A stretch of 64,000 nucleotides of DNA from assembly GCF_965208055.1 (NCBI RefSeq), contig NZ_CBDBNY010000004.1, positions 2,880,185 through 2,944,184 of the forward strand, given 5' to 3'. Within the stretch, counting starts at the first letter, position 1. Each line of letters starts with the position of its first letter. Below are positions 9,636 to 59,983 of the stretch, piece by piece. The notes under the pieces were generated by a model, which was not told the origin of the DNA, searched no databases, and saw only the letters and a list, made by a program, of their open reading frames with translations. A program made the position numbers and the translations under genes. This DNA comes from Candidatus Palauibacter sp. (GTDB taxonomy: Bacteria > Gemmatimonadota > Gemmatimonadetes > Palauibacterales > Palauibacteraceae).

Positions 9636-9761
9636 ATCTCCGGGTACGGGGAACGGGAGGCCGTCGACTCACTATCGCACGATCGTCGCGGGGGTGCACG
9701 ATGCGTTGGGCGGTGCGTTGCACGCCGGGGCGGCCAGGGCGCATCCTCAGGCCGATCCGAT

Positions 9762-14071: not shown

Positions 14072-14144
14072 TCTTCTTGGCAACCGACCGACGAGGAGCC
14101 GCCGCACCGCAGACGCAACGGGACTTCATCGCGAGGAGGGACGG

Positions 14145-15781: not shown

Positions 15782-15792
15782 GATCAAGGAGC

Positions 15793-16020: not shown

Positions 16021-16066
16021 CTTCAGCACTGATCGATTTCGACGCCACCAGGAAGAAAGGTTTACA

Positions 16067-17469: not shown

Positions 17470-17632
17470 GGCGAGCCTCGATTCCGTCCGGATCATTTCG
17501 AGCGAAAATCCAGTGCAGATGGTTCTGTGACCCATGATCACCTGAGGGCGTCTCGTATCCGGGTACACGCAGGTCAACCAGGGGGAGGTTGGAACGAAAC
17601 GGCGGACATCTGTTGCCGACGGATCTGATGCG

Positions 17633-18727: not shown

Positions 18728-18771
18728 GCTCGCCCCCGCGCGGAGGGTTCCTCCTCCTGGCTTGATGCGGG

Positions 18772-23887: not shown

Positions 23888-23890
23888 CCG

Positions 23891-26398
23891 ATGCGCGTCG
23901 GCACGTTACACACGGCCGCTGTCCTCCTGCTGCCACTACTGGCTTGCCGGGATGCTGGCCCAACCGAGCCTCCGCTCCCGATACCGATCGAGACCAGCCC
24001 ATCGACGGACCGGGAGATCCTCGCTCTTCTCTACGAGACGACGAACGGTCCGGGTTGGAAGAACAGCCGGCATTGGCTCAGCCACGTGCCACTCCACGCC
24101 TGGTATGGGGTCGATGTCGGCGCCGACGGTCGTGTCTCGAGACTCTCGCTCTACAACAACGGTCTGACGGGCCGGATTCCAGCGGAGATCGGAGGGCTCT
24201 CGGAACTTCGGAGTCTGGGGCTGGGATGGAACGAGCTGGCTGGCTCGATCCCCACCGAACTCGGAGACCTTGCGGCCCTTGAACACCTCTGGCTGCAGGG
24301 CAACGACCTGACGGGCCGGATTCCAACGGAGATCGGAGGGCTCTCGGAACTTCGGAGTCTGGGGCTGGGGTGGAACGAGCTGGCTGGCTCGATCCCCACC
24401 GGACTCGGAGACCTTGCGGCCCTTGAACACCTCTGGCTGGAGGGCAACGACCTGACCGGGCCGATCCCGCCCGAGATCGGCCGCCTCGCCGGGCTCAGGG
24501 TTTTGCGCTTCGGCGGCAACGATCTGACCGGGCCGATCCCGCCGGAGATCGCCAGCCTCGCGGGCCTCCGGAGCCTGGAGTTGTGGTCCAACGATCTGAC
24601 GGGCCCCATCCCGCCGAGTCTGGGCAACTTGACCAGCCTCGAGAGCCTCTCTCTTGCACAGAACGACCTCTCGGGCCCGGTCCCGGCGGAACTGGCCCGC
24701 CTCATCTTACTGAGGGAACTGGCCGTGAACGGCAACCCGCAGCTGTCGGGCCTGCTCCCGGCAGGCTTCAAGGACCTCTGGGGACTCACGACGCTCAACG
24801 CCGGCGGGACCGCGCTGTGCGCCCCCGCGGACCCGGATTTTCTCGCGTGGCTCGGCAGGCTGCAGAACCCGCGCGTGCGTCGCTGCGGGAACGATACCCT
24901 GTCCGTTTATCTCACCCAGGCGGTGCAGTCCTTCGAGTTCCCGGTTCCCCTGGTGGCGAATGTGCCGGCCCTGCTTCGTGTGTTCCTCATCGCTCCGGAT
25001 GGGGAAGCCATCGCTTTTCCGCCCGTGCGTGCGCGGTTCTACCTGGAGGGGGCCGAAGTCCACACCGTGGATATCCCGCGCTCCCCGGGCACGATTCCGT
25101 CCCGGCTGGATGAAGGTCGACTTGAAGCATCGGCGAACGTCGCGATCCCGGCCGAAGTCGTTCAGCCCGGTCTGGAACTCGTCGTCGAGATCGACCCGGA
25201 AGATACACTTGGCCCGGAGCTCGGCATCACGAGGCGGATCCCGGCAGCGGGCCGGCACGCCATCGACGTGAGAGCGGTGCCCGCGCTGCACCTGACGTAC
25301 CTGCCCATCGTCCGCCCCGGACGGAGGTCCGCCGAGTTCCTGAGCCGCGTCCGGAACCTGTCGGAAGCCGACACCCTGTTCCGGCGCGTACGACAGTGGT
25401 TGCCCGTCGCCGGCTTCGACGTTGCCCTGCACGACATCGTGTACACCTCGGCGCGAACCGGTGGCGAGTTGATCTCGGAGATCGAGGCCATTCGCGTATT
25501 GGAGGGCGGAACGGGCTACTACATGGGCGGGCTGCCCCAGTATCTCGTGGAAGATCTGGGCTATGCGGGTTCGGCGCGGCTCGCCGGTTGGGCTAGCTTC
25601 TCTCGTGTCCGCTCCATTACGATCGCGCATGAACTCGGCCACAACATGAGCCTCGAGCATGCTCCCTGCGGTAGCGCGAGCAGGCCGGACCCCGGTTTCC
25701 CGACCAGGGATGGAACGATCGGCGCGTGGGGCTACAACCCCACTGACAACTCACTCGTTTCTCCCGAGACGTCCGACCTGATGTCCTACTGCGGTCCAAA
25801 GTGGATCAGCGAATACAGCTTCACCAAGGCGTTCGACCACCGCCTCCGCGGGGAGGGACTGGGATCCGCAACGGCGACCACGGCCGGCGACGCGCCGAGC
25901 ATCCTGCTATGGGGTGGCATCGACGGGGAAGGCGTTCCATTCCTGGAGCCGGCCTTCGTCGTCGACGCTCCCCCGACTCTTCTCGGACCTGCGGGCCCCT
26001 ACACGCTCATGGGCAGAACCGCCGAGGGAGAGGGGTTGTTCTTGCTCCGGTTCGATATGCAGGAGATGGCGGACGGTGACGGGGAGTCGGGATTCGCCTT
26101 CGCCCTGCCCGCGTCGCCGACATGGGCGGACAGGCTGGCGACGGTGGTCCTTTCCGGGCCCGGAGGAACAGCGACGCTGAGGCATGCGAGTGGTCCCCCG
26201 GCCGCTCTCCTTCGAGATCCGCGGACCGGCCGGGTCCGCGGGATCCTGCGTGACCTCACGAGTCCCGGTAGTGGCCTCGCAACGCTCGCCGGAGCCGCAG
26301 CGGATCCGGTCTCCATCGCGTCCTTTCTCCCCGACGTGGCCAACCTCGAGATTTTGATCTCCCGAGGTCTCCCGGCGGCGGAACAGTGGAGGCGGTAG
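23891..26398 (+). CDS. Leucine-rich-repeat protein fused to a metzincin-type zinc metalloprotease domain.
   Basis: About 10 LRRs of 24 residues (LTGRIPAEIGGLSELRSLGLGWNELAGSIP...). The C-terminal HELGHNMSLEH (HExxHxxxxxH) plus the Met-turn DLMSYCGP are metzincin signatures. Confidence 0.7.
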   Translation: MRVGTLHTAAVLLLPLLACRDAGPTEPPLPIPIETSPSTDREILALLYETTNGPGWKNSRHWLSHVPLHAWYGVDVGADGRVSRLSLYNNGLTGRIPAEIGGLSELRSLGLGWNELAGSIPTELGDLAALEHLWLQGNDLTGRIPTEIGGLSELRSLGLGWNELAGSIPTGLGDLAALEHLWLEGNDLTGPIPPEIGRLAGLRVLRFGGNDLTGPIPPEIASLAGLRSLELWSNDLTGPIPPSLGNLTSLESLSLAQNDLSGPVPAELARLILLRELAVNGNPQLSGLLPAGFKDLWGLTTLNAGGTALCAPADPDFLAWLGRLQNPRVRRCGNDTLSVYLTQAVQSFEFPVPLVANVPALLRVFLIAPDGEAIAFPPVRARFYLEGAEVHTVDIPRSPGTIPSRLDEGRLEASANVAIPAEVVQPGLELVVEIDPEDTLGPELGITRRIPAAGRHAIDVRAVPALHLTYLPIVRPGRRSAEFLSRVRNLSEADTLFRRVRQWLPVAGFDVALHDIVYTSARTGGELISEIEAIRVLEGGTGYYMGGLPQYLVEDLGYAGSARLAGWASFSRVRSITIAHELGHNMSLEHAPCGSASRPDPGFPTRDGTIGAWGYNPTDNSLVSPETSDLMSYCGPKWISEYSFTKAFDHRLRGEGLGSATATTAGDAPSILLWGGIDGEGVPFLEPAFVVDAPPTLLGPAGPYTLMGRTAEGEGLFLLRFDMQEMADGDGESGFAFALPASPTWADRLATVVLSGPGGTATLRHASGPPAALLRDPRTGRVRGILRDLTSPGSGLATLAGAAADPVSIASFLPDVANLEILISRGLPAAEQWRR
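24164..24451 (+). repeat. Near-perfect tandem duplication of 2 x 144 bp (two LRR units) inside the LRR-metzincin gene.
   Basis: 24164-24307 versus 24308-24451 differ at about 4 of 144 positions. The encoded 48-aa module repeats as LTGRIPAEIGGLSELRSLGLGWNELAGSIPTELGDLAALEHLWLQGNDL. Confidence 0.8.
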
Positions 26399-26521
26399 GC
26401 CACCCTTAGCGAGCTCCACCACCCGCTACGGTGTCGATACTGCCGTGGCCCGTGGTGATCGCGCTTCCTAAGTTGAAAGGTTGCGAGGCAGCGTCATCCG
26501 TCGTTCTCGAAGGACGGGCGC

Positions 26522-29035
26522 GTGAAGACATTGAGTGCGGGTGCGGTTCTGTGGTTGTGGTTCGCCCTCATGGGGCAGCCTTCGGGGGATCGTGCGTCCG
26601 GCACGGCGCCCACCGCGCCCCTTTCCGATCACGACCTGGCCGCCCTCGTCGACACGACGGATCTGACCGCCGTCGTCCAGCGCTACTGCGCCCGCTGTCA
26701 CAACGAGCGCCTGCTGCGCGGGAACCTCATCCTGGAGACGTTCGACGTGGAGGCGGCGCACGAGCGGGCCCCCACGGCGGAGAAGATGATCCGGAAGCTC
26801 CGCGCGGGGATGATGCCGCCGCCCGGTCAACGCCGGCCCTCGGCGGACACGCTGCTGGCCCTCGTCGAGACGCTCGAGAGCGTGGTCGACCGCGACGCCG
26901 CCCGTGACCGCAACCCCGGCTCCCGGCGCTTCCAGCGGCTGAACCGGGCCGAATATGCGCGCGTCATCCGCGATCTCCTCGACCTCGAGATCGACGCCGG
27001 CCGCTGGCTCCCGGCGGACACCTACCTCGGCGCCTTCGACAACATGGCGGACGCGCAGGGCCTCTCGACCACCCTCCTCGAGGCCTATTTGCGGGCCGCC
27101 ACTGAGGTGAGCCGGATCGCCGTCGGCAACCCGGCCGCCCCCTCGAAGACCGCGAAGTACACGAACCCGATCGACGTCTCGCAGCACGCCTGGGATCACA
27201 TCGAGGGCGCGCCGTACGGGACGCGCGGCGGGATGGTCGTGACCCACGACTTCCCGGTGGATGGGGAGTACGTGGTCTCGATCGAGACGCTCTTCGGGCA
27301 GGGGACCGGTTTCCAGGACATCGACATCTCGATCGACGGGGAAGGGGTCGCCCTTCTCGGCCTCGAGCATGGCGGGCGCTCGACGGTGCCGATCCGGACG
27401 GAACCCATCTTCGTGAAGGCGGGGCAGCGCCAGGTCGCGGCGGCGTTCGTGCGCACGATCGAGGGGCCGTACGAGGACCGTCTGAAGACGCCCGGCTGGT
27501 CCTTCGTCGGAGGCGAGGACTCCCAGGCGTGGGCGAACTACGGGATCACGGCCCTGCCGCACCTGAGTGACCTGATGATCACAGGCCCTCGGCGCAGCAC
27601 GGGCGTCTCCGAGACGGCGAGCCGGCAGAGGATATTCCACTGCCATCCGGGGCGTGGCGAGGCCGTGGCGGGGGCGTCCGGGGCGGGGGCGTCCGGGCCG
27701 GCGGCCCGCGAGGAGGCTCGGGCGTGCGCGGAGTCGATCGTGACCCGGCTTGCGCGCGAGGCGTACCGGCGGCCGGTGACGGAGGAGGATCTCGCGGGGC
27801 CGATGGCCTTCTACGACGGCGCCGCGGCGGAGGACGGGTTCGAGATCGGGGTGCGGACCGCGCTGCAGGCGATCCTCGCCAACCCCTCCTTCATCTTCCG
27901 TCTCGAGCAGGCGCCGCCCGAGGTCGCGCCCGGTGAGAGCTATCCGATCGCGGACGTGGACCTCGCATCGCGCCTTTCGTTCTTCCTCTGGGCGGCGAGC
28001 CCGGATGACGAACTGCTGACGCTGGCCGCGGAGGGAGGGCTCTCGGATCCGGCGGTCCTCGAGGCGCAGGTGCGCCGGATGCTGGCGGACCCCCGCGCGG
28101 AGGCGCTCTCGACGCGCTTCGCCTCGCAGTGGCTGCGGCTCCAGGACGCGGAGGACAACCAGCCCGAGCCCTACCTCTATCCGGACTTCACCGGCCAGCT
28201 TCGCGAGGACCTGGTCCGGGAGACGCAACTCCTCTTCGATCACCTGATTCGAGAGGACCGGAGTCTGCTCGAACTGTTCACGGCGGACTACACCTTCTTG
28301 AACGAGCGCCTCGCGGGCCACTACGGGATCCCGGGCGTCGCGGGGCCCGAATTCCGGCGGGTGAGCTACCCGGGCGCCAGCCGGCGCGGAGTGCTGGGGC
28401 ACGGGAGCGTCCTGCTGCTCACGTCGATGTCCGCGCGTACCTCGCCGGTGCTGCGCGGGAAGTGGGTGATGGAGGTGCTCATGGGCACGCCGCCGCCGCC
28501 CCCGCCGCCCAACATCCCGGCCTTCGACGACACGGAGTCCGCCCGGGGCGGGCGGCTGCTGACGACGCGCGAACGGCTGGAGATGCACGCGGCCAACCCG
28601 ACGTGCCGTTCGTGCCACCGGTTCATGGACCCGATCGGGCTCGCGCTCGACCACTACGACGTGACGGGTCGCGTGCGGATCCGTGAGAACGGCGTCGCGC
28701 TCGACACGCGGGGGACCTTCTACGACGGGACCGACGTGAGCACGCCGGCGGAACTCGTGGACCTGCTCATGAAGCGGCCGGTCCCGCTCGTCCGGAACTT
28801 CGCGGCGCATCTGCTCGCGTACGCGATCGGGCGCCGCGCGGAGTACTTCGACCAGCCCGGGATCCGGACCATCGCGCGCGAGGCGGAAGCCAACGACTAC
28901 CGGATGTCCTCGTTCATCCTCGGCGTCGTGAACAGCGACCCCTTCCGGATGGCGCGTCCCGCGCCCGCCGTGGAGGAAGAGGGGGAATCGGAAGACCGAA
29001 TGAAAAATAGCCTGAGAAGCGGAGTGGGCTCATGA
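26522..29035 (+). CDS. DUF1592/DUF1595/DUF1587/DUF1588-family protein (PSD1-like) with a cytochrome-c-type CxxCH motif.
   Basis: GTG start with a signal-like N-terminus. CARCHNE is present. A long conserved multi-domain body is present, including GTPPPPPPPNIPAFDD and ANPTCRSCHRFMDPIGLALDHYD, as in DUF1592 proteins that pair with DUF1552. Confidence 0.75.
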   Translation: MKTLSAGAVLWLWFALMGQPSGDRASGTAPTAPLSDHDLAALVDTTDLTAVVQRYCARCHNERLLRGNLILETFDVEAAHERAPTAEKMIRKLRAGMMPPPGQRRPSADTLLALVETLESVVDRDAARDRNPGSRRFQRLNRAEYARVIRDLLDLEIDAGRWLPADTYLGAFDNMADAQGLSTTLLEAYLRAATEVSRIAVGNPAAPSKTAKYTNPIDVSQHAWDHIEGAPYGTRGGMVVTHDFPVDGEYVVSIETLFGQGTGFQDIDISIDGEGVALLGLEHGGRSTVPIRTEPIFVKAGQRQVAAAFVRTIEGPYEDRLKTPGWSFVGGEDSQAWANYGITALPHLSDLMITGPRRSTGVSETASRQRIFHCHPGRGEAVAGASGAGASGPAAREEARACAESIVTRLAREAYRRPVTEEDLAGPMAFYDGAAAEDGFEIGVRTALQAILANPSFIFRLEQAPPEVAPGESYPIADVDLASRLSFFLWAASPDDELLTLAAEGGLSDPAVLEAQVRRMLADPRAEALSTRFASQWLRLQDAEDNQPEPYLYPDFTGQLREDLVRETQLLFDHLIREDRSLLELFTADYTFLNERLAGHYGIPGVAGPEFRRVSYPGASRRGVLGHGSVLLLTSMSARTSPVLRGKWVMEVLMGTPPPPPPPNIPAFDDTESARGGRLLTTRERLEMHAANPTCRSCHRFMDPIGLALDHYDVTGRVRIRENGVALDTRGTFYDGTDVSTPAELVDLLMKRPVPLVRNFAAHLLAYAIGRRAEYFDQPGIRTIAREAEANDYRMSSFILGVVNSDPFRMARPAPAVEEEGESEDRMKNSLRSGVGS

Positions 29036-30468
29036 ATTTCATCACCGGCACACACCTCTCGCGCCGCACCTTCCTGCGAGGGGCCGGCGCCAGCGTGGCG
29101 CTGCCCCTGCTCGACGCGATGGTCCCCGCCGGACGGCTGTGGGCCGACCCGGCCAGGGCGACCGGGGCAGCGGAATTCACGCGTCTGGTCTGCATCGAGG
29201 AGTCGATGGGCGCGGCGGGTTCGAGCGACTGGGGCGACGCCCGGCACCTGTTCGCGCCGGCGGCGACCGGGCGCGACTTCGAGCTGGTCGCGGACAGCCA
29301 ACTCAAGCCGCTGGAGGCGTTCCGCGAGTACATGACGATCGTGAGCAACACGGATTGTCGCTCGGCGGAAGCGTTTCGGGCCGAGGAGATCGGCGGCGAC
29401 CACGACCGGTCGACGGCGGTGTTCCTCACCCAGGCGCATCCGAAGCAGACGCAGGGGTCCGACATCTTCCTCGGCACCTCGCTGGACCAGTTGCATGCCA
29501 AGCGCTTCGGGCGGGAGACCGTGCTCCCTTCGCTCGAACTCTGCATCGAGGGGATCGATCGGGGCGGGGGCTGCGCGTACAACTACCACTGCGCGTACAC
29601 GACGTCGCTCGCCTGGGCGTCGCCGAACCAGCCGCTGCCGGCCATCCGGGAGCCGCGCGTCGTGTTCGAACGCCTGTTCGGCGCCGGGGACTCGGCCGAG
29701 GACCGGGCCGCACGCCGCCGCACGGACCGCAGCATGATCGACTGGATCGCGACCGAGGTCGCTCGGCTCAGGAGGACGCTGGGCGCGGCGGACCGGGTCG
29801 CGCTTGACGAGTACGTCGAGCACATCCGCGAAATCGAGCGCCGGATCCAGCTCGTCGAGGCGCGCAACGCGAGCGGGGAGGAACGGGAGATGCCGGAGGC
29901 GCCTTCCGGGGTCCCGGACTCCTTCGAGGAGCACATGCGGCTCATGTTCGACCTGCAGTTGCTCGCGCTGCAGACCGACCTCACGCGCGTCATCACCTTC
30001 AAGACCGGCTTCGATCAGTCCAACCGGACCTTCCCGGCGAGCGGGACGACGAAGTCCGTCCACGGGGCGTCGCACCACGGCAACGTCCCCGAGGACATCA
30101 TGGACTTCAACAGGATCAACACGTACCGGCTGGGCCAGGTCGCGTACTTCCTGGAGAAGCTGCGCGACACGGTCGAGGGCGACGCCTCGCTGCTCGACAA
30201 GACGGCGATCGTGTGGGGTTCGCCGATGGCGGACGGGAACCTCCACAACCACCGGCGCGCGCCGCTGTTGATCATGGGCGGGGCGAACGGGGCGCTCGAG
30301 GGCGGCGTCCATCTGCGGGCCCCCGACGGGACGCCGATGGCGAACGCCTTCGTGAGCCTCATGCGGAAGATCGGGCACCCGGAGATGGCCTCGTTCGGCG
30401 ACAGCGACGGACTCTTCCCGCTCGACTTCACGGGCGAGGCGGCCCCGGGCGGGAGCGGCACGGGATGA
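29032..30468 (+). CDS. DUF1552 domain-containing protein (Tat-signal).
   Basis: SRRTFLRGAGASVALP is a twin-arginine signal. Overlaps the DUF1592 stop (ATGA). This is the classic DUF1592/DUF1552 gene pair. Confidence 0.75.
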   Translation: MNFITGTHLSRRTFLRGAGASVALPLLDAMVPAGRLWADPARATGAAEFTRLVCIEESMGAAGSSDWGDARHLFAPAATGRDFELVADSQLKPLEAFREYMTIVSNTDCRSAEAFRAEEIGGDHDRSTAVFLTQAHPKQTQGSDIFLGTSLDQLHAKRFGRETVLPSLELCIEGIDRGGGCAYNYHCAYTTSLAWASPNQPLPAIREPRVVFERLFGAGDSAEDRAARRRTDRSMIDWIATEVARLRRTLGAADRVALDEYVEHIREIERRIQLVEARNASGEEREMPEAPSGVPDSFEEHMRLMFDLQLLALQTDLTRVITFKTGFDQSNRTFPASGTTKSVHGASHHGNVPEDIMDFNRINTYRLGQVAYFLEKLRDTVEGDASLLDKTAIVWGSPMADGNLHNHRRAPLLIMGGANGALEGGVHLRAPDGTPMANAFVSLMRKIGHPEMASFGDSDGLFPLDFTGEAAPGGSGTG

Positions 30469-33684: not shown

Positions 33685-35001
33685 ATGAAGCCGAAGCGCC
33701 GTTCCGTCTCCACCCGAGCCGCGACGCTCCTGCTGGCATTCCTCTCATGTCAGTCTATCGTCGGGTGTAGCGACAGCCCGACGGGTCCGCCCGAACCGCC
33801 GGAACCGCCCGAACCGCCGCCGGTAGCCACGCTGCTCGCCGCCTGCGAGGGGGGGAGGGCGCGCGGCTTCCCGTGCGAGCGTGTGGACCTCGTCGGGCGC
33901 GTGGCCCTGCCGAACCTGACACCGGGACGAACCCCCGACGGGACGAGCGATCGCTGGGCCGTGAACGACATCTGGGGGTGGACGGATCCGCAGACGGGTG
34001 TGGAGTATGCCCTCGTCGCACGCCACGACGGGCTCGCCATCGTCGATCTCTCGACTCCGATCGAACCGCGGCCCATCGCGTTCATGGGCTCCCCGACCTC
34101 GTACAGTGCCTGGCGCGACGTGAAGGTGTACGCGGATCACGCGTACGTCGTGGCCGAAATCACGGGGCACGGAGTGCAGGTGCTCGACCTCACCCGGCTT
34201 CGCGGACTGACGGAGTTCACGGTCTTGAGCGCGGATGCCCGCTACCGGGAGGTGAGCGCGGTCCACAACATCGCGATCAACGAGGAGACCGGTTTCGCCT
34301 ACGCCGTCGGCAGCAACTCGGGCGGCGAAACGTGCGGCGGCGGCCTGCACATGATCGATCTCTCGGACCCGCGGAACCCGACGTTCGCGGGGTGTTACGC
34401 GGCGGAGGGGACGGGCTGGCTGGGCAGCGGGTACACGCACGATGTCCAGTGCGTCGTATACCGGGGTCCCGACGGCGACCACGCGGGTCGCGAGATCTGC
34501 ATCGGCGCGAACGAGACCGCGATCGTCGTCTCCGACGTGACGGACAAGTCGAATCCGGTGACGGTGTCGACCGCCACCTACGCGGACCGCGACTACATCC
34601 ACCAGGGGTGGCTCAGCGAGGACCACCGGTACTTCTACCAGAACGATGAGGCGGACGAGCGGAACAACCGGGTGTCGCGGACGCGCCTGCTCGTATGGGA
34701 CGTCACCGACCTCGACGATCCGGTGCTCGCGAAGGAGCACCTGGGCCCCAGCGAGGCGGTCGATCACAACCTCTACGTCCATGAGGGGTTGATCTACCAC
34801 TCGAATTACACGTTCGGGGTGCGCATCCTCGACATCTCGGATCCGGCGAATCCCATGGAGCGGGGCTACTTCGACACGGTGCCGGACCGTGACGACCAGA
34901 CGTTCGACGGCTCCTGGTCGACCTACCCCTGGTTCGAGAGCGGCATCTTCGTCGCCTCGAGCTGGGACGAGGGCCTCTTCGTCCTGCGCCTCCAGCAGTA
35001 G
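33685..35001 (+). CDS. LVIVD-repeat (choice-of-anchor-B-like) beta-propeller lipoprotein.
   Basis: Lipoprotein N-terminus followed by a PPEPPEPPEPPP linker. Six D[LIV]S[DN]PxNP-type motifs, WGWTDPQTG and CGGGLHMIDLS. Paralog of the 35255 gene and of the C-terminus of the 2046 gene. Confidence 0.7.
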   Translation: MKPKRRSVSTRAATLLLAFLSCQSIVGCSDSPTGPPEPPEPPEPPPVATLLAACEGGRARGFPCERVDLVGRVALPNLTPGRTPDGTSDRWAVNDIWGWTDPQTGVEYALVARHDGLAIVDLSTPIEPRPIAFMGSPTSYSAWRDVKVYADHAYVVAEITGHGVQVLDLTRLRGLTEFTVLSADARYREVSAVHNIAINEETGFAYAVGSNSGGETCGGGLHMIDLSDPRNPTFAGCYAAEGTGWLGSGYTHDVQCVVYRGPDGDHAGREICIGANETAIVVSDVTDKSNPVTVSTATYADRDYIHQGWLSEDHRYFYQNDEADERNNRVSRTRLLVWDVTDLDDPVLAKEHLGPSEAVDHNLYVHEGLIYHSNYTFGVRILDISDPANPMERGYFDTVPDRDDQTFDGSWSTYPWFESGIFVASSWDEGLFVLRLQQ

Positions 35002-35254: not shown

Positions 35255-36559
35255 ATGCTTGCCGATCTCGGAACCGCGCGCGTCAGGCGTACGACGGCCG
35301 CTCTCGTTTCGACTCTGATCCTCACCGCGTGCGGCGAGAGCCTTGCGGGCCCCGTCGAACGGGACACGGATCCTCCAACCCTGTCCACCGCACCCGTCCT
35401 GGTGCGCACGACCGCCTGTCAGGGCGGGTCGGCGGGCGGGTTCCCGTGCAACGGTGTGGACCTCGTCGCGAGGATGACCGCCAGCGCCCTGCGGCCGGGG
35501 AGGGCGGCGACCCACGTGAACGATGTCTGGGGATGGACCGACCCGCAGACGGGCGTCGAGTACGCCCTGGTCGGCCGCGACGACGGGCTCTCGATCGTCG
35601 ACCTCTCCACGCCTCACGCGCCGCGGCCGATTGCGTTCCTCCCATCCCATACCGGTTCGAGCCTTTGGCGCGACATGAAGGTGTACGCGGACCATGTCTA
35701 CGTCGTCGCGGACAACATCGCCGGCCACGGGATGCAGATTCTCGACCTGACGCGGCTGCGCGGGCTGGCGGCCTTCACCGAACTCTCGGCTGACGCCCGG
35801 TATACCCGCGTAAGCGCGGTCCACAACCTCGCGATCAACGAAGAGACCGGTTTCGCCTACGCCGTCGGAAGCAACCGTGGCGGCGACACGTGCGGGGGCG
35901 GGCTGCACATGATCAATCTCTCGAACCCGACGAGCCCGAGCTTCGCGGGGTGCCACGCCGTCCCGGGCACCGGGCGCCAAGGGAGGGGATACACGCACGA
36001 TGTCCAGTGCGTCGTATATGGCGGGCCGGACGGCGCGTACGCCGGTCGAGAGATCTGCGTGGGCGCCAACGAGACCGCGATCGTCGTCTCGGACGTGACG
36101 GACAAGGCGAACCCGAGGGCGCTCTCCACCGGCGCCTACGCCGACTACGGCTACGTCCATCAGGGGTGGCTCAGCGAAGACCATCGGTACTTCTACCAGA
36201 ACGATGAACTGGATGAACTGAACGGCCGGGTCTCCCGGACGCGCCTGCTCGTGTGGGACCTGGTCGATCTCGATGATCCCGTCCTCGTAAGGGAGCATCC
36301 GGGTCCCACGGGGGCGATCGACCACAACCTCTACGTCCGCGGCAACTCCATCTACCACTCCAACTACGCGTTCGGAGTTCGGATCCTCGACATCTCGAAC
36401 GCGGCGACGCCCGTGGAGCGGGGCTTCTTCGATACCGTAGCCAGCCATGACAACACGTCGTGGGCCGGCTCGTGGTCGACCTATCCCTGGTTCGAGAGCG
36501 GCGTTTTCGTCGCCACGAGCTGGGACGAGGGCCTTTTCGTCCTGCGTCTTCAGCGGTAG
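35255..36559 (+). CDS. LVIVD-repeat (choice-of-anchor-B-like) beta-propeller lipoprotein, tandem paralog.
   Basis: Lipobox ILTAC. About 70 % identical by eye to the 33685 product (NDVWGWTDPQTGVEYALVGRDDGLSIVDLSTP...). Confidence 0.7.
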   Translation: MLADLGTARVRRTTAALVSTLILTACGESLAGPVERDTDPPTLSTAPVLVRTTACQGGSAGGFPCNGVDLVARMTASALRPGRAATHVNDVWGWTDPQTGVEYALVGRDDGLSIVDLSTPHAPRPIAFLPSHTGSSLWRDMKVYADHVYVVADNIAGHGMQILDLTRLRGLAAFTELSADARYTRVSAVHNLAINEETGFAYAVGSNRGGDTCGGGLHMINLSNPTSPSFAGCHAVPGTGRQGRGYTHDVQCVVYGGPDGAYAGREICVGANETAIVVSDVTDKANPRALSTGAYADYGYVHQGWLSEDHRYFYQNDELDELNGRVSRTRLLVWDLVDLDDPVLVREHPGPTGAIDHNLYVRGNSIYHSNYAFGVRILDISNAATPVERGFFDTVASHDNTSWAGSWSTYPWFESGVFVATSWDEGLFVLRLQR

Positions 36560-36649: not shown

Positions 36650-39544
36650 ATGACTCGGATCCTCCCCGCCCGCTTCCGGATGCTCGCGGGACTCGCCGCC
36701 CTTGGCGGTCTCACGCTCGTCCTTCCATCCCCCGCTTCCGCCCAGGACCGACCACTCGTCACCCCTGAAGACTACGGCCGCTGGGAGCGGCTCGGCGGCG
36801 CGGAGTTTTCACCGTCCGGTGACTGGATCGCCTACGTCGTCACCCGGGTGGACGAGAAGTCGGAACTGCGCGTGCGCAAGGTCGCAAAGGACTCCGTCCG
36901 GGTCTTCCCGTGGGGCTCGGCGCCGCGGTTCTCCCCCGACGGGCGCTGGTTGAGCTGGACCGTCGGTCTGCCGCCGGAGGAACGGGAGCGGCTCGAAGAG
37001 AGCGACGAACCGATCCGTGAGAAGGCCTCGCTGATGGATCTGCACACCGGCGAGACGCGCGAGTTCGACGCGGTCTCCGAGCCGCGCTTCGACGCCTCCG
37101 GCAGGTTCCTGGCGCTGCGCGGCTACGCGCCGGATGAGCCCGCGGGCAAGGGCGCCGATGTCCGCATCGTCACGCTCGCCACGGGAACGGAGACCAGCTT
37201 CGGCAACGTGACCGAGATGGCCTGGAGCTCGGCCGGATCCCTGCTCGCGCTCGCCATCGCGACCGGCGCCGATGTGGGCAACGGCGTGCAGGTGTACGAC
37301 GCGGGCGCGGGTACGCTGCGTTCCGCCGACGCCTCCGGTTCCGCCTACCGGAGCCTGAGTTGGCGCGATGATTCCGCGGACCTGGCCGTCCTCCGCTCCC
37401 GCGAAGCCGCTTCCGCCGACGGCACGGCCTACGATGTTCTGGCCTGGCGCGACCTGGACCGACGCGTCGAGACACTGGTCCTCGGCGCGGGCACCGCCGG
37501 CATCCCGGACACGCTCGAGGCTGTCCGGCACCGCGCCCCCGCCTGGTCGGACGATGGCCGCATGATCTCCCTGGGGCTGCGGCCGATCGAGCAGGAAGCG
37601 GACGAAGATCCCGCCGACGATGCCGGCGACGGCGCGGAGAACGAGCCGGGAGCCGCCCCGTCCGACGACCCGGAGAACGCGGACCCGGACGCCGACGACG
37701 CCCCGACCGACGACGCCGAACCCGACCTCCCGGACCTGCAAATCTGGCATACCGGCGATGTCCGCCTCTTCCCGGAGCAGCGGGTCTCGGAGGGGCGCGA
37801 CGACACGCGATCGCTGCTGGCCGTCTGGCGCCTCGACGAGGATCGCGCCGTCGTCCTCGGATCCGACCTCATGGGCTCCGCTCAACTCCTGCACGGCTGG
37901 AAGTACGCGCTCGAGGACATCGACGAACCCTACCCGTGGGGCGCGATGTTCGGCCGTCCGTACCACGATGTGCGGGCCATCGACGCGGACACCGGCGAGC
38001 GCCGCCGACTCCTCACCCGCGTGCGCTACGAGTGGCCGAGCGCGGGCGGCGACTGGCTGATTTCGTGGGATGGCTCCGCCTACCACAGCCTCCACATCGC
38101 CACGGGCGCCACGCACGACCTCACGTCAGCGTTGGCCGCCGACTTCGCCGACACGGACTACGACACGCCCACGGACGTCATCCCCCCGCACGGTTTCGGC
38201 CCCGGCGGCTGGCTTGAGGGCGACGCCGCCGTCCTGCTCTACGACGAACACGACGTCTGGCGCGTGGCGCCCGATGGCTCGGGGGGCGAGCGGCTCACGC
38301 GCGGCGCGGAGACGGGGATCACCCACCGACTGACCCGCGTGACGGACGACGACAATGAGCCCGGTTTCGACCCCGACGCGCGCCCTTACCTGTCCCTCTA
38401 CAACGAGAAGACGGAAGAGCGCGGCTACGCCCGCTTCACGACCGGCTGGGCCAGCGCCCGCGACCGGGATTCGGCCGAGACCCTGGTCCTGGAGGACGCC
38501 TACGTGCGCGGACTCGAACGCGCCGACAGCGCCGACGTGCTGTTCTACCGCGCCGAGCGCTTCGACGACCCGCCGGACTACTTCGCGGCGGGGCCCGGCC
38601 TCGCCGACCCCGCGCGGGTGACCGGGATCAACCCCTTCATCGACGAGGTGGCGTGGGGCCGCGCGGAACTGGTCGACTTCGTGAGCGAATCGGGTCGCGA
38701 CCTCCAGTTCGTCCTCCTTCTCCCCGCGAACTACGAGGAGGGCGGTGCCGTCCCCACGATCGTGTACACCTACGAGATCCTCTCCCCGCAGATGCACCTC
38801 TTCGAGGTCCCCAGCGAGCGGGACTACTACAACTACACCGCCTGGACCCAGCACGGGTACGCGGTGCTGCTGCCGGACATCGTGTACCGGGCGCGGGATC
38901 CGGGCGTGAGCGCGCTGGAGTCCGTGCGCGCGGCGGTGGCGAAGGCCGTCGAGATGGGGGTGACGGACCCGGACGCGGTCGGGCTCATCGGGCACTCGTG
39001 GGGCGGCTACCAGGCGACGTTCCTGCCCACCCGGACCGACATCTTCGCGGCTTCCGTGGCCGGCGCGCCGCTCACCGACTTCGTGAGCTTCATGGGCCAG
39101 TTGCACTGGAACCCGGGCATCGCCGAACTGAGCCACTGGGAGACCGGCCAGGCGCGCATGGAGGTGCCGTTCTGGGAGGACCCGGACGCGCACCGCCGGA
39201 ATTCGCCGATCCACGAGGTCCACCGCATGGAGACGCCGCTGCTGATGGCCTTCGGCGACGAGGACGGCGTGGTGGACTGGGACCAGGGGACCGAGTTCTT
39301 CAACTTCGCCCGCCGCGCCGGAAAGCAGATGGTGCTCCTGGTCTACGAGGGGGAGGACCACGGTTTCCGTGACGAGGCGAACCAGAAGGACTACCACCGC
39401 CGCATCCTCGAGTGGTTCGGGCACTACCTGAAGGGCGAGCCGGCGCCGGCGTGGATTACGGACGGCGTGCCGCTGGACGGGCTGGAAGAGGAGAAGAAGC
39501 GGGTGGCCGGGACCGGTACCGAATGCGGTAGCAGGGATTTCTGA
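36650..39544 (+). CDS. S9 family serine peptidase with an N-terminal beta-propeller, secreted.
   Basis: Signal peptide MTRILPARFRMLAGLAALGGLTLVLPSPASAQ. Catalytic-Ser motif GHSWGGY, ...DEDGVVDW (Asp) and EGEDHGF (His). Confidence 0.8.
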   Translation: MTRILPARFRMLAGLAALGGLTLVLPSPASAQDRPLVTPEDYGRWERLGGAEFSPSGDWIAYVVTRVDEKSELRVRKVAKDSVRVFPWGSAPRFSPDGRWLSWTVGLPPEERERLEESDEPIREKASLMDLHTGETREFDAVSEPRFDASGRFLALRGYAPDEPAGKGADVRIVTLATGTETSFGNVTEMAWSSAGSLLALAIATGADVGNGVQVYDAGAGTLRSADASGSAYRSLSWRDDSADLAVLRSREAASADGTAYDVLAWRDLDRRVETLVLGAGTAGIPDTLEAVRHRAPAWSDDGRMISLGLRPIEQEADEDPADDAGDGAENEPGAAPSDDPENADPDADDAPTDDAEPDLPDLQIWHTGDVRLFPEQRVSEGRDDTRSLLAVWRLDEDRAVVLGSDLMGSAQLLHGWKYALEDIDEPYPWGAMFGRPYHDVRAIDADTGERRRLLTRVRYEWPSAGGDWLISWDGSAYHSLHIATGATHDLTSALAADFADTDYDTPTDVIPPHGFGPGGWLEGDAAVLLYDEHDVWRVAPDGSGGERLTRGAETGITHRLTRVTDDDNEPGFDPDARPYLSLYNEKTEERGYARFTTGWASARDRDSAETLVLEDAYVRGLERADSADVLFYRAERFDDPPDYFAAGPGLADPARVTGINPFIDEVAWGRAELVDFVSESGRDLQFVLLLPANYEEGGAVPTIVYTYEILSPQMHLFEVPSERDYYNYTAWTQHGYAVLLPDIVYRARDPGVSALESVRAAVAKAVEMGVTDPDAVGLIGHSWGGYQATFLPTRTDIFAASVAGAPLTDFVSFMGQLHWNPGIAELSHWETGQARMEVPFWEDPDAHRRNSPIHEVHRMETPLLMAFGDEDGVVDWDQGTEFFNFARRAGKQMVLLVYEGEDHGFRDEANQKDYHRRILEWFGHYLKGEPAPAWITDGVPLDGLEEEKKRVAGTGTECGSRDF

Positions 39545-40690
39545 ATGGACAGGGAAGCCGGTTTCGATGTCCGGAAGGATTTTCGGCGCTTCTCGCAGAG
39601 GGACGACATCTTCTGCCGCTCGTTCTGGGACCCGGAGGTGCGTACGCACCGCTCGGACATGTTCTACGAGACGTACCGCACGCCGAAGCTGACCTGGCGT
39701 TCCGTCGACGGCTTCACGCAGCGTGACTACGCGCTGCGCAACGCGTCCTGGCACGTGACGGACGTCTTCGCCGAACTGCGTGACGGCGAAGACCGTCGCG
39801 AGGGCTTTCTGGATCCGTACACCACCGTTCGCGAGGGCCCGGGCAGCACGCCGCCGGTGGCGTCTCCCGAGGAGATGGCGCGCGAGATCAAGCACGCCGC
39901 CAAGACCCTGGGCGCCGATCTGGTGGGGATCACCGGCAACGACGAGCGGTGGCTCTACACGCATGCCTACAGCCGCGAAAACGAGCACGAGAAACCGCAG
40001 GAGATCTCCACCGATCTCGAAACCGTGATCGTGATCGCGCAGTCCATGGACCGGGAACTGCTGCGGACGGCGCCCTCCGCGCTGAGCGGCGCCGCGACGG
40101 GCGCCACCTACTCCCGGGATACCATCGTGCTGCTGGCCATCGCGCAGTACATCACCAATCTCGGCTATCGCGCCGTGGCCAGCATGAACGACTCGGCGCT
40201 CGCCATCCCGCTCGCCATCAAGGCCGGGCTGGGCGAATACGGGCGCCACGGTCTCCTCATCACCCGCGAGTACGGCCCCCGGGTCCGGCTCGGCAAGGTC
40301 TTCACCGACATGCCGCTCGCCCGCGACAGGCCCGCCGGATTCGGCGTGAAGGAGACGTGCGACATCTGCCGCGCGTGCACGAACGGCTGCCCCGCGGGGG
40401 CGATCGCCGACGGTGAGCCGTCCACCCTGGTCCACAACCGGTCGAACATCCAGGGCATCCGAAAATGGACCACGGATGCCGAGAAGTGCTTCCGATTCTG
40501 GGCCAACCAGAACACCGACTGCTCGATCTGCGTGCGCGTCTGTCCCTACAACCGCGACTATCGCCGCCGATGGAGTCGAGTGTGGCGCTGGATGGCCGGG
40601 ACGCGGCTCAGGCGACTCGCGCTCTGGCTGGACTCCATCGGTGGACGCGGCGAGCGCCTGAGACCCGCCCATTGGTGGAGCGCCGCGTGA
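39545..40690 (+). CDS. Reductive dehalogenase (RdhA)-family cobalamin/Fe-S protein with no Tat signal (catabolic type).
   Basis: The ATG sits immediately after the S9 stop (TGAATG). GPRVRLGKVFTDMPLARDRPAGFGVKETCDICRACTNGCPAGAI...HNRSNIQGIRKWTTDAEKCFRFW...CSICVRVCP parallels PceA-type RdhA C-termini (CxxCxxCxxxCP and CxxCxxxCP). Confidence 0.6.
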   Translation: MDREAGFDVRKDFRRFSQRDDIFCRSFWDPEVRTHRSDMFYETYRTPKLTWRSVDGFTQRDYALRNASWHVTDVFAELRDGEDRREGFLDPYTTVREGPGSTPPVASPEEMAREIKHAAKTLGADLVGITGNDERWLYTHAYSRENEHEKPQEISTDLETVIVIAQSMDRELLRTAPSALSGAATGATYSRDTIVLLAIAQYITNLGYRAVASMNDSALAIPLAIKAGLGEYGRHGLLITREYGPRVRLGKVFTDMPLARDRPAGFGVKETCDICRACTNGCPAGAIADGEPSTLVHNRSNIQGIRKWTTDAEKCFRFWANQNTDCSICVRVCPYNRDYRRRWSRVWRWMAGTRLRRLALWLDSIGGRGERLRPAHWWSAA

Positions 40691-40762
40691 TGCGGTTGGC
40701 CGCCCCCGGGGTGATCGTGCCGCACGTTGACGGGTTTACGGTAATACAGCTATCATGGCGCC

Positions 40763-41029
40763 ATGAAGGCGACCATTGATATTCCGGATGACCTGTACCG
40801 ACAAGTCAAGTCGGAGGCGGCACTGCGGGGCTTGACCATTCGCGAAGTCACCACGGGACTCTATCGGCGCTGGTTGAGCGAGGACGAAGGCGCGGAGACC
40901 CGCGAGGCACCCAACGCATGGCTGCGCTCCTGGCTCGATGCGGCCGACGAAGCGCTCAAGCGTGCGCCCGGGGGCCCATCGGCGAGGGAAGAGCTGGCCG
41001 CCGACCGGAACCGGTTGGGAGCCGAGTGA
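40763..41029 (+). CDS. vapB: Type II antitoxin (VapB-like, AbrB/RHH-type).
   Basis: 88 aa, MKATIDIPDDLYRQVKSEAALRGLTIREV.... The stop overlaps the toxin start (GTGA). Confidence 0.6.
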   Translation: MKATIDIPDDLYRQVKSEAALRGLTIREVTTGLYRRWLSEDEGAETREAPNAWLRSWLDAADEALKRAPGGPSAREELAADRNRLGAE

Positions 41030-41448
41030 CGACGCTGGTCATTGACGCCAGCGTGTGGGTGTCGGCGGCAGACGCGACCGATGGATTTTCCGAGTCGAGC
41101 CGAGCCTTTCTCTCCCTGGTGGTGGAACGGGAACTCCCGGTTTCTCTCCCGGAGCTGGCGAAGCTGGAGATCGCCTGCGCGCTCGCGCGGAGGCTGCGCG
41201 ACGCCGAGCGCGGACGGAACCTGGCTGATCAAATGCTGGGTTCTCCGCTGGTCACCGTGTACTCATCGAACCGGGCGATGCTCCAACGGGCCCTCGAGGT
41301 CGGCACCCGAGGTTTTCTGCGCTCCGGGGACGCTCTCTACGCCGCCCTCGCCGATTGGCTGGGTGCCGAGGTCGTGTCGTGGGATGGCGAGCTGATCGAT
41401 CGGGCCGGGGCTTTCCCTCCCACCGACTGGATCGAACGGAACGCGTAG
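41026..41448 (+). CDS. vapC: PIN-domain ribonuclease toxin VapC.
   Basis: VTTLVIDASVWVSAADATD...GDALYAALADWLGAEVVSWDGEL carries PIN acidic residues. GTG start. Confidence 0.7.
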   Translation: MTTLVIDASVWVSAADATDGFSESSRAFLSLVVERELPVSLPELAKLEIACALARRLRDAERGRNLADQMLGSPLVTVYSSNRAMLQRALEVGTRGFLRSGDALYAALADWLGAEVVSWDGELIDRAGAFPPTDWIERNA

Positions 41449-42470: not shown

Positions 42471-43766
42471 CTACGCCGGGCCCACCAGTTCGAGGGCCGT
42501 CAGCGCGAGGGCCTGCGTGCACGCCACGAGATCGTCGACCGCGCAGGACTCGTCCGGCTGGTGGGCCTCCTCGAGGGGGCCGGGGCCGTAGGCCACGCAG
42601 TGCTCGATGCCGGCGATGCGGGCGAGGTGCTTCTGGTCGTAGGTGCCGGGGCTCGCCACGAGTTCCGGAGGACGGCCGATGACCGTCTCCACCGCCCGGG
42701 ACAGGGCGGCCACGAGCGGCGAGCCGGGCGGCGCGGAGGTGGGGTGCACGATCATGCGCTCCTCGATCGTGAAGCGGCGTTCCGGGTCGTCGCCCTCCAC
42801 CGACGCGACCAGGCGCGCGATTTCGGCGCGGACCTCGTCGAACGGCTCCTCCGGGATGAAGCGGCGGTCGAAGGTGGCCGCGCAGCGGTCGGCCACGCAC
42901 GGCGACTGGGTCGCCTCGCCGGACTGCCCGCCGGTGATCGCGTTGACGTTCAGCGAGGGACGGCGGGAGGGTTCCGGCACGACGGGCAGGGCGGAGAGAC
43001 GCGTCGCGAGGTCGGGGGCGAGCCGGGTTCGGAAGGCTTCCAGCAGGGCGCCCATGTCATCGATGGCGCTGCGGCCGAGGTGGCTCATGCTGCCGTGGGC
43101 CGTGTGGCCGTGTGCGACGACGTCGAACCAGTAGACGCCCCGGTGCCCCACGCACACGCGACCGGGCCCGAACGGCTCCGGGATGATGGCGTAGCGGGTG
43201 TCGTCGCTGGAGATGACCCCGGCCTCGCACAGGTGCGCGACCCCCGCGAACCCGCCGCTCTCCTCGTCGACCGTCGCACTGATGTCCACGGCGCCCTCGA
43301 GTTCGATCCCGGCGCGCCGCAACGCCTCGAGCGCGAAGACCGCGGCGGCGATCCCGGACTTCATGTCCGACGCCCCCCGCCCGTAGATGCGGCCCTCGCG
43401 CACCACGCCCGCGAACGGGTCGACCGTCCACCCGTCCCCCGGCGGGACCACGTCGAAGTGGCCGTTCAGGTGGAGCCGCGGACGTCCCGGAAGGGCGGCC
43501 CCCCGCCCCACCACATTCACTCGCGGGTGGTCGGCGGTATGCTCCGGGCGCCCCTCCGCCTCCACGTACTCGACCGCCAGGCCCGTCGCCCCGAGCCGCC
43601 GCCCGATCAGTTCGGCGCAGTCCCGGTAGCACTCCCCGGGGGGATTCACCGTGGGGATCCGGATCATCTCCGCCGTGAAGACCACGATCTCGTCGCGGGC
43701 GGCCTCCACTTCGGCGAGGACCCGGTCCTCCCGGCGCGTGCCGGCTGGTGGGTTTACGTGGTGCAT
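42471..43766 (-). CDS. M20 family metallopeptidase (ArgE/DapE/acetylornithine deacetylase-like).
   Basis: Start MHHVNPPAG. HLNGHFDVVP, GRGASDMKSG and TVDEESGG are M20 metal-binding motifs. Confidence 0.75.
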   Translation of the reverse strand: MHHVNPPAGTRREDRVLAEVEAARDEIVVFTAEMIRIPTVNPPGECYRDCAELIGRRLGATGLAVEYVEAEGRPEHTADHPRVNVVGRGAALPGRPRLHLNGHFDVVPPGDGWTVDPFAGVVREGRIYGRGASDMKSGIAAAVFALEALRRAGIELEGAVDISATVDEESGGFAGVAHLCEAGVISSDDTRYAIIPEPFGPGRVCVGHRGVYWFDVVAHGHTAHGSMSHLGRSAIDDMGALLEAFRTRLAPDLATRLSALPVVPEPSRRPSLNVNAITGGQSGEATQSPCVADRCAATFDRRFIPEEPFDEVRAEIARLVASVEGDDPERRFTIEERMIVHPTSAPPGSPLVAALSRAVETVIGRPPELVASPGTYDQKHLARIAGIEHCVAYGPGPLEEAHQPDESCAVDDLVACTQALALTALELVGPA

Positions 43767-43820
43767 ACCCCTACATTGTGTCGCGCCCTGCACCACACGA
43801 AACCCTGCCCGAGAATCTCC

Positions 43821-51475: not shown

Positions 51476-51520
51476 CACCGTCGCCCCCCGGACGACTTCC
51501 CGGAGCTTCCATAACGAACG

Positions 51521-54500: not shown

Positions 54501-54739
54501 ACGAGGACGACCTCAACGCGGGCGACCCGACGTATCCCCACCGCGTCATCGACGCCTTCGGCACCTTCGACGCCACGGTGATGATGAAGCTGACGGACAG
54601 CATCGACGCCTTCGTGACGGGCTTCAACCTGTTCGATACGGCGCCGCCGCTGGTCAATCAGGAAGGGGCCTACGACGGCCTCACGCACGACCCCAAGGGG
54701 CAGCGCCTCAAGGCCGGCATGACCTACACGATCAACTAG
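51521..54739 (+). CDS. TonB-dependent receptor (SusC/RagA-like; CarboxypepD_reg + plug + beta-barrel).
   Basis: Signal peptide. ISGTITDETGLALPTVSVTATG... The plug ends ...IEVLKEGASAIYGSDAVAGVANFVTR. Long barrel domain. 1072 aa. Confidence 0.8.
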   Translation: MRIMFRIRRIAALGVLALAWPAAVAGQDGAISGTITDETGLALPTVSVTATGPALGDESRTALSSEQGLYSLTGLPTGTFSLRFVYPGFAIETRAGVAVTAGDRTLLDVELVSLRTVTLEELTAVVTGTHFAAPPISLPYAVDVSTRESLQEEGSPLVVDFFKRLGANHGSLGERNSWYNRSGALVPETVASVNLRGLGASRTLVLFNGRRQVYTPSRLPGGRFVDVNAFPSIALDRIEVLKEGASAIYGSDAVAGVANFVTRQDFEGFEVTAAHDYFSGAGDSNAGAIWGGRLGASTNVVVAAEWAARQELMPEERDWGLRPYPGPGGGGWSYYGNPGAFLMPSLTGNETPGEFVSALIGSQFGANPNLFVDPECENFGGVNEGVTCRFRYQPYDNLVDKQNHIRAFGEINGELGASTTFHLEGLWSEATIPDWRTTPSFPPISLYDGLQLVVPENPGRQAFCAANAGHAGFASAADCLQDDWYFYGRMVGNSGPGRTLHRSSRTQRIAASIDRHFEETEGHLDISVSYSRASGNVNQPAEYAYRKYLAYRGFGGPNCGVDVVVDPTSPAGMSLGSTGGAVAGQGDCMFYNPFSNAIQRAEQPGTQYTNANNPGYVAGAANSPELLGWINEEVDLFNTADLFVAEATFTGQFTEALGYALGYQFRRFDVTGTPNDAGNQALNPCQVPGDRTCLEQAGPFTFTTGYFPYEDGQTVHRFYGEIPLNLGDRLDLQFAANYEFHDVASSFDPKVSLRLNLTDSDNHELSLRGSLQSTFRVPSVDDVNTDQITALEYVQEVDVYKAVDTFGSADLDPERAVTGNVGLIFFHYPSRLQATFDYWSYDFRDVINVIPHSSITRLYHEGGASRAAVRGFVKCPDGWGTGTCDAALIERIRIDLINWPGMQTSGFDWSLSTRRTLGSGELALGIDGTYTRTYDIKALEVGGVELVGATEGVGTLNRNNPLAWPLPQWKWSASAGYHADRYSIIGNVNYISSYEDDLNAGDPTYPHRVIDAFGTFDATVMMKLTDSIDAFVTGFNLFDTAPPLVNQEGAYDGLTHDPKGQRLKAGMTYTIN

Positions 54740-54884
54740 AGAGGTGGACCCTGGATCACCTGATCGCCAGATACTCGATCGAGGCGGAGAGACCGTCGTC
54801 TAACTCCTGCTGCAGGCCGGCGTCGATCCCCACGCCCGGAACGACCTTCGGAACTACGCCCTCATCAACCATGGAGTTGCCCAA

Positions 54885-59812: not shown

Positions 59813-59965
59813 ACTACGTGGCCCATCCTCCAGAAGTCACCGTCAGAACTACCGGCGCGCCGGACCGCCCTTTCCCTGCAAGTTGGTGGTGCGAACCGGG
59901 CTCGTGACCGGACGACAGTGCATTGGAGGTGAAAGAATTCGACTAAACGGGGTGGGGATCACGAT
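59750..59965. promoter_or_regulatory. Copy B of the repeated divergent-promoter region (LuxR regulator <-> TPR membrane protein gene).
   Basis: See copy A. Confidence 0.6.
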
Positions 59966-59983
59966 GGCGGCGTGGGGTCGATG

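Follow-up and report, generated by a model that had tools for sequence, protein, structure and literature searches.

The 64-kb window analyzed here, i.e., the whole 64,000-nucleotide (nt) stretch from Candidatus Palauibacter sp. (contig NZ_CBDBNY010000004.1, positions 2,880,185 to 2,944,184 of the forward strand), carries a gene for a secreted peptidase of the S9 (prolyl-oligopeptidase) family and, directly behind it, a gene, referred to as rdhA, whose product resembles reductive dehalogenases (RdhA). The two open reading frames (ORFs) and the functional segments of rdhA lie at the following window positions.

36650-39544, plus strand: ORF of the secreted S9 (prolyl-oligopeptidase family) peptidase, 964 amino acids (aa)
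39545..40690, plus strand: rdhA-like gene, 381 aa, predicted soluble and signal-less, PceA-like reductive-dehalogenase family
40109..40288, plus strand: active-site codon segment, with Tyr189 at 40109-40111, Asn215 at 40187-40189 and Arg248 at 40286-40288
40358..40393, plus strand: first [4Fe-4S] motif CDICRACTNGCP, residues 272-283, CxxCxxCxxxCP with P283, invariant among 63 relatives
40487..40546, plus strand: second Fe-S motif, C315-x10-C326-x2-C329-x3-C333-P334, invariant among 63 relatives

A preliminary description of this DNA had reported both ORFs, the rdhA ATG abutting the peptidase TGA and a set of C-terminal RdhA hallmark motifs, and each of these was located in the sequence. The tgaATG junction reads ttcTGAATGgac, and the two ORFs lie in one frame (2895 = 3 x 965) with a single TGA between them. 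The upstream protein begins with a signal-peptide-like N terminus (MTRILPARFRMLAGLAALGGLTLVLPSPASAQ) and is laid out as an N-terminal region of beta-propeller/PD40-like type, a linker that is acidic and of low complexity, and a catalytic domain at the C terminus, the last matching Peptidase_S9 (PF00326; 1.4e-25, residues 751-929) and carrying its nucleophile motif, GHSWG, at residue 781. In the rdhA product, the first Fe-S region is FGVKETCDICRACTNGCP (C272/275/278/282), and HNRS, KCFRFW (C315) and CSICVRVCP (C326/329/333) are also present.

By hidden Markov models, sequence-to-structure matches, catalytic residues and predicted fold, the 381-aa protein is assigned to the RdhA family as a true member, in agreement with the preliminary description. 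It scored 174.3 bits against the NCBIfam reductive dehalogenase model TIGR02486 (curated cutoff, 160.35) and passed the Pfam gathering scores of PF13486 (34.3 versus 24.3) and Fer4_16 (35.1 versus 30), while the model of the epoxyqueuosine reductase QueG, TIGR00276, gave 62.9 bits against an equivalog cutoff of 200. QueG belongs to the same superfamily, with a B12-binding core and two 4Fe-4S clusters; it is a cobalamin-dependent enzyme, contrary to the preliminary description, which had treated it as B12 independent. Among PDB sequences searched with HMMER, the closest matches were PceA of the Desulfitobacterium RDH complex (8q4h; 2e-51) and S. multivorans PceA (4uqu; 1e-48), with NpRdhA (2e-28) and QueG (6e-11 to 7e-07) more distant; an exact-sequence look-up with the window protein returned no match. 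In the HMMER alignment, read by hand, S. multivorans PceA residues Tyr246, Asn272 and Arg305 align with Tyr189, Asn215 and Arg248 of the window RdhA. These three residues are invariant in an alignment of the close family (A1) and at least 90% conserved in an alignment of 63 diverse relatives (A2), across which all eight Fe-S cysteines are invariant. An AlphaFold2 (AF2) model reached a pLDDT of 91.1 and a pTM of 0.92; it rests on the 63-sequence alignment, a run with 17 close homologues having been unusable (pLDDT 38.9). When this model was compared to the PDB with Foldseek, the best match was 8q4h_A (E 6e-30; query-normalized TM-score [TMq] 0.81), followed by S. multivorans PceA (TMq 0.73), NpRdhA (TMq 0.73; target-normalized TM-score [TMt] 0.41) and QueG (TMq 0.39), and the top 36 matches were RdhAs without exception.

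The N terminus and hydropathy of the protein predict a soluble, cytoplasmic enzyme outside the respiratory type. The N-terminal 60 residues are markedly hydrophilic (Kyte-Doolittle averages over 19 residues, -0.85 to -1.5), no RRxF[LK]-type twin-arginine motif was seen near the N terminus, no 19-residue window anywhere in the protein reached transmembrane-level hydrophobicity (maximum, 1.33), and no small ORF with at least two transmembrane segments, as expected for RdhB, was found in the roughly 5 kb flanking rdhA on each side. The hydropathy and motif scan and the flanking ORFs thus agree with the preliminary description, which had noted neither a twin-arginine translocation (Tat) signal nor an RdhB anchor gene. 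The ORF cannot be lengthened at its 5' end, where the in-frame TGA blocks it, and a Pfam scan found no additional domain in the 381-aa protein, hence neither an NAD(P)H reductase nor an NpRdhA-type N-terminal domain.

The same description had likened the protein to the catabolic NpRdhA/BhbA type and had called it short for an RdhA; neither view was borne out. By sequence it groups as PceA-like, given the far better match to PceA (2e-51) than to NpRdhA (2e-28), the lack of extra domains, and Arg248 (GPRVRLGKVF), which aligns opposite Lys488 of NpRdhA (GPRSKSIVF). A rough neighbor-joining (NJ) tree built on the conserved core places NpRdhA far outside, as an outgroup, and the window family within the PceA-like radiation. 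As for length, 5579 related clusters at E ≤1e-3 and 459 at ≤1e-30 were retrieved when 1.84 billion representative proteins were searched; of 81 full-length relatives tabulated (29-50% identity), 49, among them the eight closest, lack an N-terminal extension (312-420 aa), and about 27 have an RR motif within a 40- to 70-aa extension. These counts are preferred to the Tat labels on the NJ tree, which are crude and in places wrong (several Tat proteins, P0053). A length of 381 aa is therefore the norm for the surrounding signal-less clade, and a type of about 395 aa has been published (PMC12219181).

Set beside known systems, the window RdhA has its best sequence and fold match in PceA (8q4h, 4uqu), with which it has both Fe-S motifs and the Tyr/Asn/Arg set in common; as we read the alignments, its N terminus coincides with the conserved stretch found after the Tat cleavage site of mature RdhAs. 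Unlike PceA, it is encoded without a Tat signal peptide, RdhB anchor or accessory rdh genes, and it is some 80-120 residues below the deposited PceA chains (381 versus 464 and 503 aa). With NpRdhA and BhbA (4ras, 6zy1) it shares a predicted cytoplasmic location, the absence of Tat and RdhB, and a catalytic core that superposes (TMq 0.73), but identity is only 21-23%, the match spans about 41% of NpRdhA (TMt 0.41), and it has neither the vestigial cobalamin-binding-like domain at the N terminus, which brings such proteins to about 700 aa, nor a fused NAD(P)H reductase. A "simplified cytosolic" RdhA-like type with a mean length of about 395 aa has been described from cold-seep metagenomes, mainly in Desulfobacterota and Chloroflexota (PMC12219181); going by that description, it resembles the window RdhA in length, in lacking a vestigial domain, transmembrane helices and a Tat signal, and in being uncharacterized. 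That type was placed in the cytosolic, NpRdhA-related group, whereas the window family is PceA-like and comes from Gemmatimonadota and Acidobacteriota, and the much greater similarity to PceA than to NpRdhA argues for a different clade. A further parallel, again from the published description, is RdhA1 of Desulfoluna butyratoxydans MSL71, a PceA-like protein without RR motif, rdhB or rdhC that its authors took to be a non-respiratory protein of the cytoplasm; the genus is marine and linked to sponges (PMC7031245), although its strictly anaerobic, sulfate-reducing lifestyle differs from that of the window host. Fold, family and the short signal-less architecture are therefore already known, and the specific clade is uncharacterized.

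The nearest genomes are metagenome-assembled genomes (MAGs) named Ca. Palauibacter (denitrificans, irciniicola, rhopaloidicola), Longimicrobiales and Gemmatimonadota; at 72-73% identity, the RdhA recurs in Acidobacteriota of the Thermoanaerobaculia, the Holophagales and "Ca. Multivorans." The Acidobacteriota proteins (L064-L083) nest within the Gemmatimonadota diversity in the rough NJ tree and their genes always stand behind a trehalose-phosphate synthase gene, which suggests a single inter-phylum transfer of rdhA followed by vertical descent. Palauibacterales have been described as facultative aerobes in which B12 biosynthesis was not found and btuB and btuF were present, with all sponge-derived MAGs of the order in one genus (PMC10469786); the host thus probably imports cobalamin instead of making it. 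In the literature searched, no report of an RdhA in Palauibacter or in sponge Gemmatimonadota was found.

We scanned GTDB species genomes and recovered 80 loci with RdhA proteins of 72-96% identity. The S9 peptidase abuts rdhA only in the window and in its nearest relative, L004 (RdhA identity, 96%; nucleotide identity, 95% over 8 kb). In L022 and L033, whose RdhAs are 93-95% identical, the same peptidase ends 4.7 kb upstream of rdhA, and three genes intervene: agcS, for an AgcS-type amino acid carrier on the opposite strand; xsc, for sulfoacetaldehyde acetyltransferase (TIGR03457, 735.8 bits versus a cutoff of 676.4); and a class-III aminotransferase gene. The aminotransferase stop abuts the rdhA ATG in these relatives exactly as the peptidase stop does in the window (GIEYGCRDL-stop-ATG). 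In blastn alignments, window 38257-39512 corresponds to L022 1-1253 (91%) and window 39511-40692 to L022 5967-7148, which divides the upstream gene of the window as follows.

36650..39510, plus strand: native part of the S9 peptidase gene, with signal-peptide-like N terminus, PF00326 and GxSxG motif
39511..39513, plus strand: deletion junction, a 3-nt microhomology (GAC) common to the 3' ends of the peptidase and aminotransferase genes, placed from the alignment and the blastn breakpoints 39512/39511
39514..39544, plus strand: aminotransferase 3' remnant, 31 nt, from which the peptidase ORF takes its final 10 codons (GTECGSRDF) and its TGA and which is also the rdhA 5' leader
C terminus of the window peptidase: RVAGTGTECGSRDF-stop, i.e., EEEKKRVAGT joined to GTECGSRDF
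Native peptidase C terminus in L022: EEEKKRVAGKPPP-stop, ending RVAGKPPP
Native peptidase C terminus in L033: EEEKKRVAGTPPP-stop
C terminus of the class-III aminotransferase in L022: VKTGIEYGCRDL-stop

By these alignments, the window and L004 carry a recent 4.7-kb deletion of agcS, xsc and the aminotransferase gene that fused the peptidase to the aminotransferase end. The in-frame TGA-ATG abutment is inherited, through the deletion, from the aminotransferase-rdhA junction, an arrangement kept in at least 11 species-level loci, and the shared reading frame is a by-product of the same event. A second, independent deletion is seen in L027 (L027:5985-6003), where precisely the aminotransferase ORF (L022 4571-5992) is removed, Xsc stands directly in front of rdhA and rdhA is intact. 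By this comparison, genes upstream of rdhA have been lost repeatedly while rdhA was retained. The adjacency is a deletion scar confined to the window and L004 and is thus uninformative on the RdhA substrate. The preliminary description had taken the abutment to imply co-expression and had suggested halogenated tyrosine- or peptide-derived substrates; the junction is real and co-transcription is likely in this strain, but the functional link does not hold, and a junction derived from an aminotransferase gene says nothing about what the RdhA acts on. A peptidase-RdhA fusion through TGA read-through or selenocysteine was also considered and ruled out, as the common frame stems from the deletion, the genes are separate in relatives and homologues start independently. 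The agcS/xsc/aminotransferase genes of L022 (L022:1293-6000), and likewise those of L033 and L027, look like a taurine/sulfonate-type catabolic cluster, deleted in the window. A functional tie of rdhA to this ancestral xsc-aminotransferase cluster is unsupported, with other lineages lacking the cluster and the genes deleted twice while rdhA was kept.

We also determined which gene lies upstream of rdhA on the same strand at 83 loci plus the window, using targeted tblastn in place of six-frame ORF clustering, which was too noisy (overlapping-frame ORFs are common at 69% GC).

ABC exporter: 29 loci
Trehalose-phosphate synthase (GT20): 20 loci, Acidobacteriota throughout
Class-III aminotransferase: 11 loci
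Amine oxidase: 3 loci
Xsc: 1 locus
S9 peptidase: 2 loci (window and L004)
Something else or nothing: 17 loci
Contig edge: 1 locus

The upstream neighbor varies by clade, and rdhA has no conserved partner. Homologue contexts with precomputed Pfam calls contained no rdhB, regulator or corrinoid gene. Within the 64-kb window itself, corrinoid, ferredoxin and rdh accessory genes were not found, and Rfam returned no match, hence no cobalamin riboswitch; no terminator was found after rdhA. Values of dN/dS (omega) for rdhA against seven relatives were 0.10-0.23, showing that the gene is under purifying selection. Five loci (L011, L015, L017, L018 and L036) carry variable hexanucleotide repeats (GACAGG/GACACG) at the 5' end of rdhA, within its initial ~30 nt (about 5970-6000 in locus coordinates), giving N termini such as MDRDREAGF and MDTDTDTGRDREAGF in place of the MDREAGF of the window; this looks like a slippage-prone length polymorphism near the start codon.

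We consider it probable that rdhA encodes a soluble, cytoplasmic RdhA of the PceA branch that dehalogenates natural organohalides, and that it is an autonomous gene whose join to the peptidase is a deletion scar. The protein would be a catalytic core only, made up of a corrinoid-binding domain and a ferredoxin-like domain with two [4Fe-4S] clusters. Imported cobalamin would be bound base-off, and a separately encoded ferredoxin or flavodoxin would feed electrons via the two clusters to the cobalamin. By likeness to PceA, Co(I) would then attack the carbon-halogen bond, with Tyr189 the putative proton donor to the product and Arg248 and Asn215 positioning or assisting. Since the protein has no Tat signal, membrane anchor or fused reductase, the reaction is expected to take place in the cytoplasm and outside respiration, its most likely role being to detoxify natural organohalides or prime them for catabolism, and rdhA would behave as an autonomous unit, mobile in context. 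Our guess at the substrates is brominated aromatics, because the carriers belong to a sponge-derived genus.

Several points weigh against this assignment. High conservation with no conserved partner would equally suit a housekeeping enzyme with a non-halogen substrate. Classical RdhAs are oxygen sensitive, yet the hosts are facultative aerobes. To our knowledge, RdhAs carry no simple sequence motif for corrinoid binding. The NJ tree is rough and without support values, and the sponge association comes from MAG names and one paper. Moreover, no promoter-like site was found between the peptidase and rdhA in the window, and in this strain the two genes may well share a transcript.

The alternative that survives best, which we nevertheless regard as unlikely, is that the protein is a B12/Fe-S reductase of the RdhA fold acting on a substrate other than an organohalide, for example a conserved cellular or symbiosis metabolite, much as QueG reduces an epoxide. 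The degree of conservation exceeds what is usual for RdhAs (66-92% across the order within Gemmatimonadota, 72-73% across phyla, omega of 0.1-0.2), genes for a regulator, rdh accessory proteins or a catabolic pathway do not recur consistently in the neighborhood, and rdhA was kept while its neighbors were repeatedly deleted, all of which would fit such an enzyme. What speaks against it is that the protein passes the RDH model cutoff and scores far below that of QueG, keeps the PceA Tyr/Asn/Arg set and has dehalogenases as its best structural matches; in addition, some MAGs hold two RdhA paralogues, which would be less usual for a housekeeping enzyme.

A functional operon acting on halogenated peptides or tyrosine derivatives, in which the S9 peptidase frees a halogenated residue for dehalogenation by the RdhA, seems to us highly improbable. 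The abutting stop and start codons and the missing intergenic promoter make co-transcription likely in this strain, the host genus is sponge derived, and sponges produce bromotyrosine compounds; against this, RdhA loci of 93-95% identity have 4.7 kb between the two genes, the adjacency being limited to the window and L004, the aminotransferase gene is the source of the junction and of the final 10 codons of the peptidase, the peptidase bears a signal peptide, whereas a cytoplasmic location is predicted for the RdhA, and chance neighbors of this kind are expected among the several other peptidases of the window, a second S9 enzyme included. A respiratory dehalogenase docking on an unrecognized membrane partner encoded elsewhere is just as hard to credit, for although sequence and fold are nearest to respiratory PceA enzymes and a cold-seep survey put some RdhA-like genes of Gemmatimonadota and Acidobacteriota among respiratory types (PMC12219181), the absence of a Tat signal puts the periplasmic face out of reach, there is no transmembrane helix and no rdhB in the window or any context examined, and the closest relatives are signal-less without exception.

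Within the preferred reading of a cytoplasmic PceA-branch dehalogenase, a more specific and clearly more speculative possibility is that this minimal RdhA family is a cytoplasmic debrominase of facultatively aerobic sponge and coral symbionts, exchanged between phyla inside the holobiont. Its hosts would be Ca. Palauibacter and Acidobacteriota of the Thermoanaerobaculia/Holophagales type, and it might serve in detoxifying or exploiting organobromines made by the host or its symbionts. If the family does act on natural organobromines, more organisms would count as dehalogenators in sponge holobionts, sponge organohalide turnover would reach well beyond the rare anaerobic Desulfoluna, and enzymology would gain a small, soluble, partner-free RdhA scaffold. 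Apart from that, the locus illustrates that closely abutting stop and start codons may be an inherited scar instead of a sign of a functional operon, and what remains is a well-defined, strongly conserved and uncharacterized clade of predicted minimal cytoplasmic PceA-like RdhAs, occurring in abundant sponge-associated bacteria that probably import B12 and with a confident predicted structure now at hand.

Two further features follow rdhA directly.

40727..40756, plus strand: sigma-70-like promoter TTGACG-18-TATCAT, 1 site versus 0.1 expected, before the VapB-like gene
40763..41448, plus strand: VapB-like antitoxin and PIN toxin module, VapB at 40763-41029, toxin probably from about 41026 (PF01850 PIN, 3.8e-07)

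Lying directly after the rdhA stop, this promoter delimits the peptidase-rdhA unit on its downstream side. The VapB/PIN module appears to be a mobile toxin-antitoxin module, as it directly follows rdhA in the window and L004, lies behind a DUF3667 gene in L022 and L033, and has no counterpart in L027.

The peptidase gene is immediately preceded by two tandem genes for paralogous LVIVD-repeat proteins (33685-35001 and 35255-36559), both of which align to one segment of L004, which apparently has a single copy; L027 has two. The other peptidases of the window are a second S9 enzyme (DPPIV_N, PD40), an M14 carboxypeptidase and an M20 enzyme (4144-6669, 6960-9668 on the minus strand and 42471-43799 on the minus strand); with several peptidases present, one beside rdhA is unremarkable. 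Fragments of TonB-dependent receptors are encoded at 17546-19875 and 51515-54739, and peptide-scavenging genes are plentiful in the region. Two large leucine-rich repeat (LRR) proteins, one of them also immunoglobulin/cadherin-like, and a tetratricopeptide repeat (TPR) protein are encoded at 23888-26398, 54804-57878 and 59933-62275. Eukaryote-like LRR and TPR repeat proteins are typical of sponge symbionts, and their presence is consistent with a host-associated lifestyle. A stretch of lower GC content at 13400-17500 (0.60-0.63 versus about 0.69 elsewhere), which may be horizontally acquired, encodes two paralogous lipoprotein-like ORFs (14666-15781 and 16282-17469). Finally, a DUF1592/DUF1588/DUF1585/DUF1587/DUF1595 (PSD/PSCyt) protein adjoins a DUF1552 (HXXSHH) protein at 26477-30468, a pair typical of Planctomycetes-like genomes.

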